Shown one piece after another: positions 9,604 through 14,050 of a stretch of 20,952 nt of DNA (the first letter of the stretch is position 1; each line of letters starts with the position of its first letter). The notes below the pieces were generated by a model. It worked only from the letters and a program-made list of their open reading frames with translations. It searched no databases and had not been told where the DNA came from. The position numbers and the translations under genes are program-made. This stretch comes from an uncultured Anaeroplasmataceae bacterium (GTDB lineage: Bacteria > Bacillota_I > Bacilli_A > Acholeplasmatales > Anaeroplasmataceae). Location: contig CAQJHN010000019.1 of the NCBI GenBank assembly GCA_948814005.1, positions 1-20,952 of the forward strand, written 5' to 3'.

Positions 9604-9630
9604 TAAAAAAAGGGCCTTTCGAGACCCTTA
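9604..9630 (-). terminator. Rho-independent terminator after the helicase-peptidase-lipoprotein operon
   Basis: Minus-strand RNA AAGGGUC-ucgaaa-GGCCCUU (7-bp stem, one G-U pair) followed by UUUUUUU. It overlaps the stop codon of the lipoprotein gene. Confidence 0.6.
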
Positions 9631-11292
9631 TTCACCTATGGCATCATTTGTTTCATTTTCTTCTGCTATAGTTTCTTCATTTAAATCAGCATCCTCTGCT
9701 GACACTGTTTCATTTTCTTGTATAGTTTCATCTATGGCCGCAGCAGAATCATTCTCTGCAGAATTTAGTTCCTGGTTTTCATTTCTGGAAATCGTAAACC
9801 AACATCTTCCCAGTTCTTCTCCAGTAATTTTCAATTCCCAGTCTCCAGCTTCAACACCTTCAAGACGCATGATCTTCTTTCCATATCCATCCTCTAGTAA
9901 CAAGTCCGCATTCGCAACATCGTTATAAAGAATCCCTGAAGGAGACTTGATTTCAATTGCTGCTGCATGGGTTGCATTTTCCCATTTTACAGTAGCAATT
10001 CCTTCTCCACTGACACCATCGCTATGAATTGTGATTTTACCGCTTGTATTACCAGAATGAACAAAACTATCCGCATTTCCAGTCCCAAACGATGTATCTA
10101 TTGTAAATTTCCTTTCTTTCAAATCATAAATATCTATTTTCCAAGTTCCTGATACAACTCCATCCACATCCACTTTTAGAATCTGTTTTCCATTTTCTGA
10201 TTTCTGTTCAAAATCTATCGAATTTCCAAGTGGAGAAGTGATTGTTGCACTTGGTGCTGTATACAGAATATCATTTGGATCTTCATTATCCTTTAAATCA
10301 TATTTTAATATCATTCCAAATGACTTGATTGTTGCATCGATGTCGTAGGAAAACTCATAGTCTGCCGTTTTTTCTACATCTCCTGGTTTGTTACCCATTA
10401 GCTTATTATATTCTTCCAAAGTGATCTGCTTTCCATTTTCATCCTTATAGAAATATGGAACAGAAAAATCCACATTTGCGATTCCTTCACTCCGGTTATT
10501 CGCCACATACCGAACAACTCCAATTCCATTTAAAAGATAGTATCCAGATAAAAAGTATTCTGGGATCTTTACGGATGCATACCCTTCAGGCAATAAGTTG
10601 TATTCATTTGTCTGATATAATTCCATTGATGATAGAACATGGGTATCTACCATAGATTCTATTACATGATGCTGTGTTCCAATATAGAGATCAATATTTG
10701 CCATTTCGTCAGGTTTAAGACCTGATACGCTTCCACATTCTGTTAACCTATCCGCAGTTATAGATTGTCCTGCGATTTTATCAATGATAATCACAGAATC
10801 TCCAAGTTCCAACTGTGATAAGCCAGCATAGGAAGCGGAACCATGATCGGTTTTTGATTCTCCAATTACAAACTGAATTTTCCCAGATTCGGCTACTTTT
10901 AAATTATATAATCCAATTGTATACCCTTTATCACTAAAACGCTCCCATGTAAATCCTGGAACCGATTGTTTTGTATAATAGATCATGGTATCATCTTTAT
11001 ACATTGTAGGGATTAAAGAATCATCTTTTGTGAAAGAAACTATCCTGTCCGGATTCGCCTCTTTCGCAATTAGGTTTTCCTCATTTACATTCGTTTCTCC
11101 CATGTGGATTGGATAAAAATCATCTCCATTTTTTACATAAAACATATTTTCCTGCAAATTTTCTGCGTTAATCGGTGTAAGTTCATAGGAATCTTGCTTT
11201 TTTTCCTCCTTTTTTAATCCACTTAAAGGATTTCCACAAGCCGATAAACATATTGATGCTGCTAAACAAGCTGCTATAACTCTACCCTTCAT
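9628..11292 (-). CDS. Lipoprotein, function unknown (554 aa)
   Basis: N-terminus MKGRVIAACLAASICLSACGNP is a signal peptide plus LSAC lipobox. Its ATG overlaps the TGA of the upstream signal-peptidase gene (ATGA), with RBS GGAGG 7 nt upstream. The body is beta-rich; the C-terminal about 50 aa is acidic and repetitive (ETIQENETV / EETIAEENETN). Confidence 0.8.
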   Translation of the reverse strand: MKGRVIAACLAASICLSACGNPLSGLKKEEKKQDSYELTPINAENLQENMFYVKNGDDFYPIHMGETNVNEENLIAKEANPDRIVSFTKDDSLIPTMYKDDTMIYYTKQSVPGFTWERFSDKGYTIGLYNLKVAESGKIQFVIGESKTDHGSASYAGLSQLELGDSVIIIDKIAGQSITADRLTECGSVSGLKPDEMANIDLYIGTQHHVIESMVDTHVLSSMELYQTNEYNLLPEGYASVKIPEYFLSGYYLLNGIGVVRYVANNRSEGIANVDFSVPYFYKDENGKQITLEEYNKLMGNKPGDVEKTADYEFSYDIDATIKSFGMILKYDLKDNEDPNDILYTAPSATITSPLGNSIDFEQKSENGKQILKVDVDGVVSGTWKIDIYDLKERKFTIDTSFGTGNADSFVHSGNTSGKITIHSDGVSGEGIATVKWENATHAAAIEIKSPSGILYNDVANADLLLEDGYGKKIMRLEGVEAGDWELKITGEELGRCWFTISRNENQELNSAENDSAAAIDETIQENETVSAEDADLNEETIAEENETNDAIGE

Positions 11293-11852: not shown

Positions 11853-14050
11853 TTTACTACCTCTCCTTTTTTTCCCTGAATTTTTTTAGTCAGTCCGGTT
11901 TTTCTCTGATCGATCCTTGTAGTGTGAACCGAATCTGACAATGCTGAATTTACATAGATAATTTCCACCTGCTTCTTGGCTCTTGTTATAGCTGTAAACA
12001 ACATATTTCGATTCAGCATGTTTTGATAGGTATCAGGCAGTACGATCACGACTATTTCAGCCTCCGATCCTTGTGCTTTATGGATAGTAATTCCATATGC
12101 AAGTGTCACTTCCTTTAAACAGTTTCCTGTAACTCTTTTTTCTTCTGAGCCCACTTTAACCATAAATCCATTTCTAAGTATTTCCGTTATGTATCCAATA
12201 TCTCCATTGTAATAATCCTTTTCATAATTATTATTCAAAAAAATAACCTTATCATTTTTATGGTATGAAGTCCTTCCATAAGTAAAGGACTTTTCTCCGT
12301 TTTCTTTATTCACTTTTTGAGATATAATTGTATTAATAGCTCTAGTCCCTCCATCTCCTACTTTCACTGGAGATAGAATCTGGATATTATGCTCCTTTCC
12401 ATTTTCTCTAAAAGTATCAAATAATTCCTCCAATCTTTCCATTGCTTCTTTTATAGTTTCACATGCTGTAATATGGAAAGATGAATCCTTTACAAAATCC
12501 ATTCTTCCATCAAGGACTTTGTACGCATTATCGATAATAGTAGGCAAACCTTTTTGCCTGAAAATTTCTTTTAATCGATGCGTTTCAAACTTATTACTTT
12601 CAATTAAGTCGTGAAGTACATTTCCACTTGATACACTTTGTAGCTGATCTTCATCTCCTATTAATATGAGAGTTGCACCAGCCTTAATTGCCGGTAACAA
12701 AAGTGCAAAAATCTCTGTATCTACCATTGACATCTCATCCAGAATGATTAAGTCTGCTAATAAAGGATCTGAAGCATCTTTATGTTTCATTTCTCCATCA
12801 GAAAATGGTCTGAATTTCAATGTTCTATGGATTGTTTCAGCATCCATTTGTGTAATCTCACTCATCCTTTGCGCAGCTCTCCCAGTTGGAGCACATAGGA
12901 GTATGTTGTTACATGGATGCATAGTCTGATACATGTATATTATGCCATTTACGATTGTAGTTTTTCCTGTTCCTGGCCCTCCTGTTATAATTTTTATTCC
13001 ATTCGTTCTTAAAACCTCAAAAGATTCCTTTTGCTTTTCTGAATATTTAATCTTTAAATGTTTTTCTACATCTTCAATTATTTTTTCATTATAAAAAGAA
13101 TCCTCTTTTCTCTCATTCAACCTCAAAAGATTCTTTGCTATGAAAACTTCACAATCCCATAGTTTTTTTCTATAAACGCGGATTCCATTATTTGCTTTTT
13201 CCATAACAATTCCACTCATTGTCTGAATAGCCGCTGCCAATACAGCCGCTGGCACAGGTTCTGATGGATAGGAAGATTTTTTTACAAGTTTAGCAATTTG
13301 ATTTTTCAATGCAAACTGAGTAGAATAAGTAGAACCACTTTGCGTAGTTATTATGTCAAGCCCTTCATAAATCATACTTTTAATCCGATTTAAATGTAAG
13401 GCATCAAAATTGAGGGATTTTCCTATCCGGTCACATGTAAAAAAGTCAAGGCCTGCTCGATATCCTATTCCATATGGGTCTCTTTTTAATCTCTTCAATG
13501 CATTTTTTCCATACATTTTCATTAACTTATCGCAATTTGCAATCGTTCCTCCAAATCCAGATATATATTCCAAAATTACATAAGAAGAACTTATACTCAT
13601 CAATCTGTTGTAAACCAATTCTAATTTGGTTGTATCTATTTTAGGTAAATTTTCAATCATGATTTCTAGTGCCTTTGGATCCCTTGAAAAACTTAAAATG
13701 TCATCGCCTGCCACATCTATAATTTTGTTGATTGTACAGGTTGACATCTTAAATTCATCGGACTCCTCTTTAAGTTCTGTGATAATTCTTTTTAATATTT
13801 TTTTACTCATTTCACGAGTTTCTGTATATGGTTTTATTGTCTTTGACTCATACCGATTATCATTCCATGTTCCAGTAAGCATAAGACATGTATCTAATGG
13901 CCATTTAGGAATAACGCTATCTACAACTACAAGTCCATCCGAATTCCTTTTTACATCAATCTCGTCTGTTTCAATACCGATGATTGAAACACCCGTACTC
14001 TCATCTCTTTTATAATACTTGCTTAATACTCCGTTAAATCTTTCTACCAT
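11843..14050 (-). CDS. recD2: RecD2-like SF1B ATP-dependent DNA helicase
   Basis: Walker A ITGGPGTGKTT, Walker B LILDEMSMVD, the arginine-finger region LILIGDEDQL, and the C-terminal SF1 motifs GITIHKAQGSEAEIVVIVL and FTAITRAKK. About 300 aa of N-terminal extension, typical of RecD2/YrrC. Start set at the ATG (MVERFNG...) at 14050 with RBS GGAGG and a 5-nt spacer; the ORF-track TTG at 14062 overlaps the RBS. Confidence 0.85.
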   Translation of the reverse strand: MVERFNGVLSKYYKRDESTGVSIIGIETDEIDVKRNSDGLVVVDSVIPKWPLDTCLMLTGTWNDNRYESKTIKPYTETREMSKKILKRIITELKEESDEFKMSTCTINKIIDVAGDDILSFSRDPKALEIMIENLPKIDTTKLELVYNRLMSISSSYVILEYISGFGGTIANCDKLMKMYGKNALKRLKRDPYGIGYRAGLDFFTCDRIGKSLNFDALHLNRIKSMIYEGLDIITTQSGSTYSTQFALKNQIAKLVKKSSYPSEPVPAAVLAAAIQTMSGIVMEKANNGIRVYRKKLWDCEVFIAKNLLRLNERKEDSFYNEKIIEDVEKHLKIKYSEKQKESFEVLRTNGIKIITGGPGTGKTTIVNGIIYMYQTMHPCNNILLCAPTGRAAQRMSEITQMDAETIHRTLKFRPFSDGEMKHKDASDPLLADLIILDEMSMVDTEIFALLLPAIKAGATLILIGDEDQLQSVSSGNVLHDLIESNKFETHRLKEIFRQKGLPTIIDNAYKVLDGRMDFVKDSSFHITACETIKEAMERLEELFDTFRENGKEHNIQILSPVKVGDGGTRAINTIISQKVNKENGEKSFTYGRTSYHKNDKVIFLNNNYEKDYYNGDIGYITEILRNGFMVKVGSEEKRVTGNCLKEVTLAYGITIHKAQGSEAEIVVIVLPDTYQNMLNRNMLFTAITRAKKQVEIIYVNSALSDSVHTTRIDQRKTGLTKKIQGKKGEVVNCH

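Follow-up and report, generated by a model that had tools for sequence, protein, structure and literature searches.

A 20,952-nt stretch of DNA assigned to an uncultured Anaeroplasmataceae bacterium (GCA_948814005.1, contig CAQJHN010000019.1, positions 1 to 20,952 of the forward strand; hereafter the window) carries a tight three-gene, same-strand unit with one downstream terminator, in which the genes for a RecD2-type DNA helicase, a type I signal peptidase (SPase I) and a 554-amino acid (aa) lipoprotein follow each other in overlapping order. We consider it probable, on balance, that this trio is one transcription unit in the conserved backbone of an uncultured, A+T-rich extrachromosomal element of ~230-270 kb from gut Clostridia, that the host most likely belongs to the Lachnospiraceae, and that the element is a megaplasmid rather than a jumbo phage. 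The helicase and the two envelope genes are most likely joined by co-expression, not by a shared biochemical pathway. The locus thus combines components of known kinds in a new, clade-specific arrangement with an uncharacterised, widespread lipoprotein family.

Three overlapping genes closed by one terminator

Three consecutive head-to-tail open reading frames (ORFs) lie on the minus strand within 9628-14062, namely RecD2 (14050-11843), SPase I (11852-11289) and the lipoprotein (11292-9628). The features of the unit are:

11843..14050, minus strand: RecD2-type superfamily 1B (SF1B) DNA helicase, first gene of the putative operon, 735 aa, TIGR01448 and Pfam matches
11289..11852, minus strand: type I signal peptidase (S26A, LepB/Sip type), 187 aa from TTG 11852, PF10502 and TIGR02227 matches
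9628..11292, minus strand: 554-aa lipoprotein with lipobox LSAC (Cys19), a PDZ-like module and beta-sandwich domains
9604..9629, minus strand: intrinsic-terminator-like hairpin, 8-pair stem at 9629-9610, GAAA loop, then T7 (terminator scan)
14075..14103, minus strand: candidate sigma-70-type promoter TTGATA-17-TACATT (consensus scan, 9 of 12 positions match)

A preliminary description of the window had proposed three overlapping genes with a shared terminator, and the ORFs, junctions and terminator scan confirmed it. The helicase starts at ATG 14050, which GGAGG precedes by 7 nt; a TTG further upstream in frame (14062) has no Shine-Dalgarno sequence. The RecD2/SPase junction reads ...AAATTGTCACTAAAA..., so that the SPase start, TTG 11852, lies within the end of the helicase gene, with an overlap of 10 nt and GGAGAGG in front; the SPase/lipoprotein junction, ACAACATGAAGG, is a 4-nt ATGA overlap with GGAGG upstream. 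Most automatic gene calls begin the SPase at ATG 11816 instead (175 aa, 26-nt gap to the helicase). However, residues 1-12 counted from the TTG align with the N-termini of diverged orthologues, which makes the TTG start and the 10-nt overlap the better reading. At both junctions the genes share a strand, overlap stop to start and have a Shine-Dalgarno sequence inside the upstream gene, the sequence pattern of an operon with translational coupling, and we therefore predict only provisionally that the trio is co-transcribed and translationally coupled. The same four-base overlap joins two other minus-strand genes of unassigned function at 16042-17456 (106 and 365 aa), which indicates that ATGA overlaps are general in this gene-dense element and not specific to the trio.

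The hairpin closes the unit 1 nt beyond the lipoprotein stop. It folds at -12.2 kcal/mol, modestly better than shuffled sequences (z -1.8), and at the equivalent position two of the relatives described below, L006 and L021 (L numbers label the loci and contigs compared), have a stronger hairpin followed by a T-run (z -3.9 and -4.3, respectively). The preliminary description had named internal terminators or promoters as signs that the genes are separate: the terminator scan found no minus-strand terminator-like site inside 9630-14050, and promoter-like hexamers occur in the unit at the chance rate (31 vs. 32.7 expected from shuffled sequence), so they speak neither for nor against internal promoters. 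The putative promoter TTGATA-17-TACATT lies in the 169 nt that separate the divergent RecD2 and sigma-factor genes, and remains a candidate because such matches reach the chance rate in A+T-rich DNA. Rfam and tRNA scans of the window gave no matches.

Gene order is conserved in diverged lineages

The preliminary description had named a gene order unique to this isolate as a sign against its reading. That is not the case: the order helicase, peptidase, lipoprotein was seen again in five or more diverged lineages, whose contigs measure 158-272 kb. These relatives comprise L006 (a 158-kb Logan contig), L010 (233 kb, IMG/VR), L021 (a fermentation metagenome), L022, and L027-L029, L086 and L104 (JGI/ENA contigs of 192, 233 and 272 kb). 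Their lipoproteins are 45-49% and their SPases 54-65% identical to those of the window, and RecD2 orthologues of ~50% identity occupy the equivalent position. The shared order consists of a gene for a CHC2 zinc-finger protein and a sigma-factor gene on one strand and, divergent from them, RecD2, SPase, lipoprotein, a Pnkp-like gene and two small genes; the block continues with a second lipoprotein gene on the opposite strand and then topoisomerase III. Across ten loci the RecD2-to-SPase spacing ranges from -10 to +26 nt and the SPase-to-lipoprotein spacing is -4, +15, +58/59 or +80 to +95 nt, and a hairpin with a T-run follows the lipoprotein gene in the relatives folded (L006 and L021). As the trio is kept within a collinear block of more than 15 kb, its order alone is no proof of a functional link between helicase and peptidase. 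One lineage differs within the block: in L022 (6385-10804) an inserted FtsH-like membrane protease (FtsH_ext, AAA and Peptidase_M41 domains) separates the lipoprotein gene from the Pnkp-like one.

The element itself is common in public data. The exact lipoprotein is indexed in 137 public metagenome assembly blocks, its flanking genes in similar numbers, on scaffolds of up to 245,654 bp, and the copies compared across projects have nucleotide identities of at least 99.7%. Between the window and L001-L005, L015-L020 and L026, all from independent metagenomes, genes differ by 0-5 nt each, a near-clonal pattern; in one of these assemblies (L004) topoisomerase III is split into two ORFs. A whole-window megablast against GenBank phages and PLSDB plasmids returned no near match.

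The helicase is a full-length RecD2

The first gene product scores 511.6 bits against TIGR01448 (cut-off 500) and covers model positions 15-711 of 713, and is thus a full-length RecD2; the Pfam domains HHH_RecD2, AAA_19/AAA_30, SH3_13 and UvrD_C_2 are all above their cut-offs, and Walker A (GGPGTGKTT) and Walker B (DEMSMVD) are intact in the translation. By these features the protein is an SF1B RecD2 helicase, for which 5'-3' unwinding is predicted. It also matches phrog_4412 along its full length, and TraA/TraI relaxase models match its core alone, far under their cut-offs. A reading of the operon as a defence system was dropped as unsupported: the only PADLOC matches are those of generic RecD-like models to the helicase core, and none concern the SPase or the lipoprotein.

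The element has a second RecD2 paralogue (774 aa), seen at L015:15716-21440, outside the window and ~4-10 kb beyond its start. After it come genes for a MoxR-type AAA_5 ATPase and a VWA/CobT_C protein, and a VWA/CobT protein also adjoins the SPase gene in the plasmid-like contig L009.

The signal peptidase is probably of a host type

The second gene product matches PF10502 (3e-41, 141.6 bits vs. 22.9) and TIGR02227 (129.8 bits vs. 47). Its Ser41 (PSGSM) and Lys85 (VKRLIGLPGD), the Ser-Lys dyad of boxes B and D, align with PSGSM and IKRAVGLPGD of Escherichia coli LepB (1t7d), the motifs in which the catalytic Ser90 and Lys145 of that enzyme lie, and both residues are invariant across eight aligned relatives. 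A single N-terminal membrane anchor is present, the hydrophobic segment 16-34, directly before the catalytic serine. Box E reads GDNRNHSNDAR, in which the serine expected from GDNRxxSxDSR, which contacts the catalytic lysine, is replaced by alanine; the clade alignment has alanine in two other lineages as well and serine in the remaining ones. Judged by its Ser-Lys dyad, the protein is supported as a catalytically intact type I enzyme. The SPase of the L022 lineage additionally has a CxxC...CxxC insertion. Against the model of the conjugative peptidase TraF (TIGR02771) the window SPase reaches only 22.4 bits, far below the cut-off of 100.25.

A metagenome scan with the SPase alignment as query recovered 80 loci with SPase relatives. 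In six of them, all with SPase identities of at least 54%, RecD2 lies upstream (where the contig extends) and the lipoprotein downstream, and this restriction indicates that the pairing is specific to one clade. The other 74 (42-54% identity) have neither neighbour, and several are on contigs of 0.3-2.4 Mb, which argues for recruitment of a host-type lepB; the SPase of the element thus looks like a captured Clostridia-type lepB. A single-protein SPase scan of IMG/VR returned nothing.

A plausible client lies ~8 kb past the window end, where a secreted SLT lytic transglycosylase (L018:17694-18338; in a relative, L106:2257-3003) has a classical Sec signal peptide ending in AMA/A (window type) or VFA/D (L010 type); we regard it as a candidate element-encoded SPase I substrate. 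Its gene adjoins one for a ParA-like protein of 505 aa and one for a small membrane protein, an arrangement kept in two lineages.

The lipoprotein belongs to an unnamed, widespread family

The N-terminus of the third gene product, MKGRVIAACLAASICLSAC/G, has a basic n-region, an h-region and the lipobox L-S-A-C, and Cys19 is at least 90% conserved among 24 homologues. The lipobox is genuine, with lipidation and cleavage by Lgt and Lsp predicted, and the protein is accordingly not an obvious SPase I substrate. This agrees with the preliminary description, which had supposed that the SPase serves other proteins than its neighbour, and the SLT transglycosylase is one candidate for them.

In the full-length model (predicted local distance difference test score, pLDDT, 78.7) beta-rich domains follow one another in tandem and an acidic tail is disordered; from the N-terminus the order is a PDZ-like module at ~35-300, two or three beta-sandwich domains and the acidic tail at ~507-554. 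The N-terminal module has a PDZ-like fold at moderate similarity and matches no PDZ profile, and a Foldseek search of the full model against the PDB gave generic beta-sandwich matches alone (template modelling score, TM, <0.2). Searches of Pfam, NCBIfam, PHROG and PADLOC found no family for the protein. One variant of the element has a shortened acidic tail (536 vs. 554 aa).

Relatives of the lipoprotein form 29 clusters, all metagenomic, in a word-indexed search, and a profile search of 1.84 billion representatives extended the unnamed family to 840 representatives. Of the 173 sequences of the family that were examined, no fewer than 131 (at least 76%) have a lipobox-like motif, and the inspected sequences that do not match it mostly have an N-terminal membrane anchor, which argues that the domain acts on the outside of the membrane. 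Distant homologues (31-35% identical) adjoin a Mob_Pre relaxase and a VirB4-like ATPase (L007) or PrgI (L023), and others are found near Rep_3 (L009), on two Butyrivibrio megaplasmids typed MPF_T and, in one case (P0100), on a 2.7-kb contig; some distant members are fused to DUF285 surface repeats. The family is of interest in itself, as a large, unnamed, membrane-anchored and PDZ-like group that recurs on Clostridia plasmids and conjugative elements and has no assigned function.

A second lipoprotein, which matches no family, is encoded on the plus strand at 5855-7375 (probable start ATG 5915, MKKYILPIFLTACLLSGC, lipobox LSGC). It keeps its position and orientation in the relatives at only ~27% identity.

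The neighbourhood resembles a megaplasmid backbone

We read the element over ~45 kb (the window and 10 kb on either side), about one fifth of roughly 245 kb. The genes next to the trio are:

14220-15050, plus strand: sigma-70-family factor, divergent from the trio, Pfam Sigma70_r2
15132-16025, plus strand: CHC2 zinc-finger (DnaG N-terminal-like) protein, Pfam Zn_ribbon_DnaG
8362..9579, minus strand: Pnkp-like polynucleotide kinase/metallophosphatase, Pfam AAA_33 and Metallophos, phrog_8238

The sigma factor, which by its best matches is not of the extracytoplasmic function (ECF) type, and the CHC2 protein accompany the operon in all relatives. The Pnkp-like gene, whose position is also conserved, is the next one downstream and is split from the trio by the terminator; its product matches phrog_8238 ('RNA ligase') over the N-terminal half of that family. 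At 441-1898 (minus strand) lies the gene for a CCA-adding, HD-domain tRNA nucleotidyltransferase, which together with the Pnkp-like enzyme suggests a capability for RNA or tRNA repair; no ligase was seen in the window. Other genes in the ~45 kb encode topoisomerase III, MoxR/VWA proteins, NADAR, MYG1, ParA-like, SLT and MVP-like proteins, the ParA-like partition gene lying in a flank. The G+C content of the window is ~34%. A contig of a Lachnospiraceae metagenome-assembled genome (L009) has a RecD2-like helicase, SPase I, VWA/CobT, Rep_3 and the N-domain of the lipoprotein within 11 kb, and NlpC/P60 within 18 kb. In its gene content the neighbourhood resembles the replication/maintenance-type backbone of Clostridia megaplasmids and not a transfer region, and the plasmid lean is supported by the ParA-like gene, by the parallels with the megaplasmids pRUMAL01 and pCY360 described below, and by the fact that the ~45 kb read contain no match to a structural PHROG and no capsid, portal, terminase or tail gene.

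An unlikely though credible alternative is a jumbo phage or phage-plasmid of ~240 kb, in which the operon would be an early or host-takeover unit, with RecD2 replicating phage DNA, SPase I processing Sec-exported phage proteins (e.g. a lytic transglycosylase endolysin) and the lipoprotein acting in superinfection exclusion, as Ltp or Llp do. Consistent with this, a 47%-identical relative lies on a 233-kb contig filed as viral in IMG/VR (L010); RecD2 matches its PHROG family in full, and the sigma, Pnkp-like and S26 proteins also fall into PHROG families; the element's own sigma factor, Pnkp-like and CCA-adding enzymes and MoxR/VWA proteins are content common in huge phages; and the secreted SLT protein matches phage lysis and tail PHROGs. 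The MVP-like gene, too, is common to uncultured phages of 462-735 kb, at 40% identity. However, the part read has no phage structural gene and does have the partition gene, the trio occurs in no curated phage genome, and the best RecD2 and SPase matches in phage collections are ~30-35% identical or come from short fecal contigs that lack annotation. Among cultured replicons, megaplasmids are the closest parallel, and the filing of megaplasmids as huge phages, as in IMG/VR, is documented (PMC12934698).

The MVP-like gene we rejected as a marker of either phage or plasmid, since besides the phage copies a 62%-identical copy is chromosomal, in a Lachnospiraceae-type context (polA, coaE, thiC), and a 69% copy lies on an unrelated, phage-like 171-kb contig. 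In the window this gene (MVP_shoulder, Vault_3; 18574-20952) is split by a frameshift at an A8 run (18877-18884). Exact copies of the 131-aa upstream product occur in 240 assembly blocks, and an intact 813-aa allele exists (P0175, 100% over 694 aa); the split suggests homopolymer phase variation, programmed slippage or a recurrent assembly error.

Several points weigh against the reading of the trio as one transcription unit of a megaplasmid. The terminator of the window is weak (z -1.8), and lineages with 58-95 nt between SPase and lipoprotein could have an internal promoter or attenuator. Conservation of the trio says nothing specific about a functional link, as the whole block of more than 15 kb is conserved, and the proposed SPase substrate is a single protein picked by eye. 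As regards the replicon, no Rep gene was seen in the ~45 kb, and with about one fifth of the element read and a relative in IMG/VR there may be room for a jumbo phage or phage-plasmid.

Proposed roles of the three proteins

If the element is a megaplasmid of this kind, a promoter in 14051-14219 would drive one mRNA ending at the hairpin and T-run (9629-9604), and ribosomes would pass from gene to gene through the stop-start overlaps (10 nt and ATGA), each preceded by a Shine-Dalgarno sequence. RecD2, as a cytoplasmic protein, would help to replicate or recombine the element, together with the sigma factor, the CHC2 protein, topoisomerase III and the second RecD2. SPase I may add to or specialise signal-peptide processing for Sec-exported proteins of the element, such as the SLT transglycosylase. 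The lipoprotein would be lipidated and cleaved by host Lgt and Lsp and would show its PDZ-like module and beta-sandwich binding domains at the outer face, where its most likely partner is a peptide or a surface ligand, and such binding would fit exclusion, adhesion or the handling of exported proteins. The pairing of helicase and peptidase would then most likely be one of co-expression and mechanistically unsurprising.

We are doubtful of a dedicated envelope module, in which SPase I and the PDZ-like lipoprotein would cooperate in secretion maturation or regulated proteolysis (for instance by a site-1-type cut in a membrane-bound regulator, or by capturing exported clients at their C-termini) while the helicase is merely co-expressed. 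SPase and lipoprotein are neighbours in every member of the clade (-4 to +95 nt), an FtsH-like membrane protease is inserted in the unit in L022, the sigma factor is transcribed divergently, and a case in which an SPase makes the site-1 cut in an anti-sigma factor has been described (PMC8844934). However, we identified no anti-sigma factor of the membrane, the best matches of the sigma factor are not ECF, the lipoprotein family is found without a neighbouring SPase outside the clade, and the PDZ similarity is moderate with no profile match. A bolder form, in which the SPase would cleave and the PDZ module capture specific exported or membrane clients at the outer face, with coupling to RecD2 timing their action to replication of the element, also strikes us as rather unlikely. 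If true, such a module could reshape the host surface or set a regulator free, and the family of 840 representatives would be a new class of mobile-element envelope factor.

The preliminary description had also placed the trio in a conjugative transfer region, with RecD2 as a DNA-processing helicase, the SPase maturing a T4SS or pilus component as TraF does, and the lipoprotein as a T4SS surface, adhesin or entry-exclusion protein. Thus, of its overall interpretation, the operon, its conservation and the SPase of a mobile element stood, whereas the transfer region did not. We hold that placement to be improbable: although distant lipoprotein homologues lie beside Mob_Pre and VirB4-like genes or PrgI, both homologue-bearing Butyrivibrio megaplasmids are typed MPF_T, and a secreted SLT protein, VirB1-like in function, is encoded nearby, the window and the 10 kb on either side contain no relaxase, VirD4-type coupling protein, VirB4, VirB6/PrgI or other T4SS gene, the TraF and TraA/TraI models fare as poorly as described above, the immediate conserved partners are replication or nucleic-acid enzymes, and the conjugation-linked distant lipoproteins are not beside SPase or RecD2.

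Comparison with known systems

A dedicated signal peptidase encoded beside its substrate is known from tapA-sipW-tasA of Bacillus subtilis and from TraF/TrbC of IncP plasmids, and the window shares with them a signal peptidase gene inside an operon with a gene for an exported protein. However, SipW is of the ER (endoplasmic reticulum) type and the window SPase of the P (prokaryotic) type, the TraF model is unmatched, and the lipobox of the neighbouring protein implies cleavage by SPase II. Mobile elements also encode exclusion lipoproteins, such as YddJ of ICEBs1, Ltp of phage TP-J34 and Llp of T5. The window protein is likewise a mobile-element lipoprotein on the outer face of the membrane, and distant members of its family lie near T4SS and relaxase genes; at 554 aa it is far larger, with PDZ-like and multi-sandwich domains, and the likeness noted is one of description, with no similarity in sequence or fold found and no search aimed at it made. 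A literature search for an association of RecD2 with signal peptidases turned up incidental co-mentions alone.

That plasmids carry SPase I genes, as the preliminary description had noted for Bacillus, is borne out by PLSDB, in which tblastn found lepB on 431 plasmids and RecD2-like helicases on 310. The lepB matches include 5.8-kb plasmids of B. subtilis (38% identity), pCY186 (39%) and pCY360 (40%), as well as Clostridium plasmids, and RecD2 and SPase matches at coinciding coordinates were absent among the matches listed. Like these plasmid enzymes (SipP of the pTA1015/pTA1040 type, lepB of Clostridium and Butyrivibrio), the window SPase is a P-type S26A peptidase with a Ser-Lys dyad and one N-terminal anchor, on a mobile replicon besides the host enzymes. 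Unlike lepB of pCY186 and pCY360, which has neither neighbour, it is linked to RecD2 upstream and the lipoprotein downstream, and unlike plasmid lepB its nearest relatives (~50%) include genes on Mb-scale, probably chromosomal contigs. The annotated lepB of pCY186 (Butyrivibrio proteoclasticus; L013:6603-8555) is itself a 650-aa fusion of Glucodextranase-B/Ig-like domains with a C-terminal S26 domain.

Among cultured replicons, pRUMAL01 of Ruminococcus albus 7 has two tandem RecD2-like helicases at the start of its record, with CHC2 and dnaE, and pCY360 of B. proteoclasticus has a RecD2-like gene adjoining a sigma-70 factor; these helicases are full-length and 33-35% identical to that of the window. 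The window element resembles both in its two RecD2 paralogues, sigma factor and CHC2 protein, and both Butyrivibrio megaplasmids carry lepB and a distant lipoprotein homologue. In contrast, no SPase or lipoprotein follows the helicase in pRUMAL01 or pCY360, and the window element is uncultured, with no Rep seen in the part read.

A further parallel is offered by the 'Hodor' conjugative megaplasmids of human-gut Bacillota, described in a recent preprint, which exceed 200 kb, are known from metagenomes only, have been filed among huge phages, and encode their own SecY/E/G, trigger factor, sortases and surface proteins (PMC12934698). Hodors have 44-47% G+C with Rep_3, a T4SS, sortases and giant surface proteins, vs. 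~34% G+C and none of those genes in the part of the window element read, and their description mentions neither a signal peptidase nor RecD (PMC12934698); as G+C and gene content differ, we regard them as a parallel and not as the same element. If our reading holds, the window would represent another very large and very widespread extrachromosomal element of the gut, with its own protein-export enzyme and surface proteins, and its likeness to the SecYEG- and sortase-bearing Hodors would suggest that changes to host secretion capacity and cell surface are routine among the large elements of gut Bacillota.

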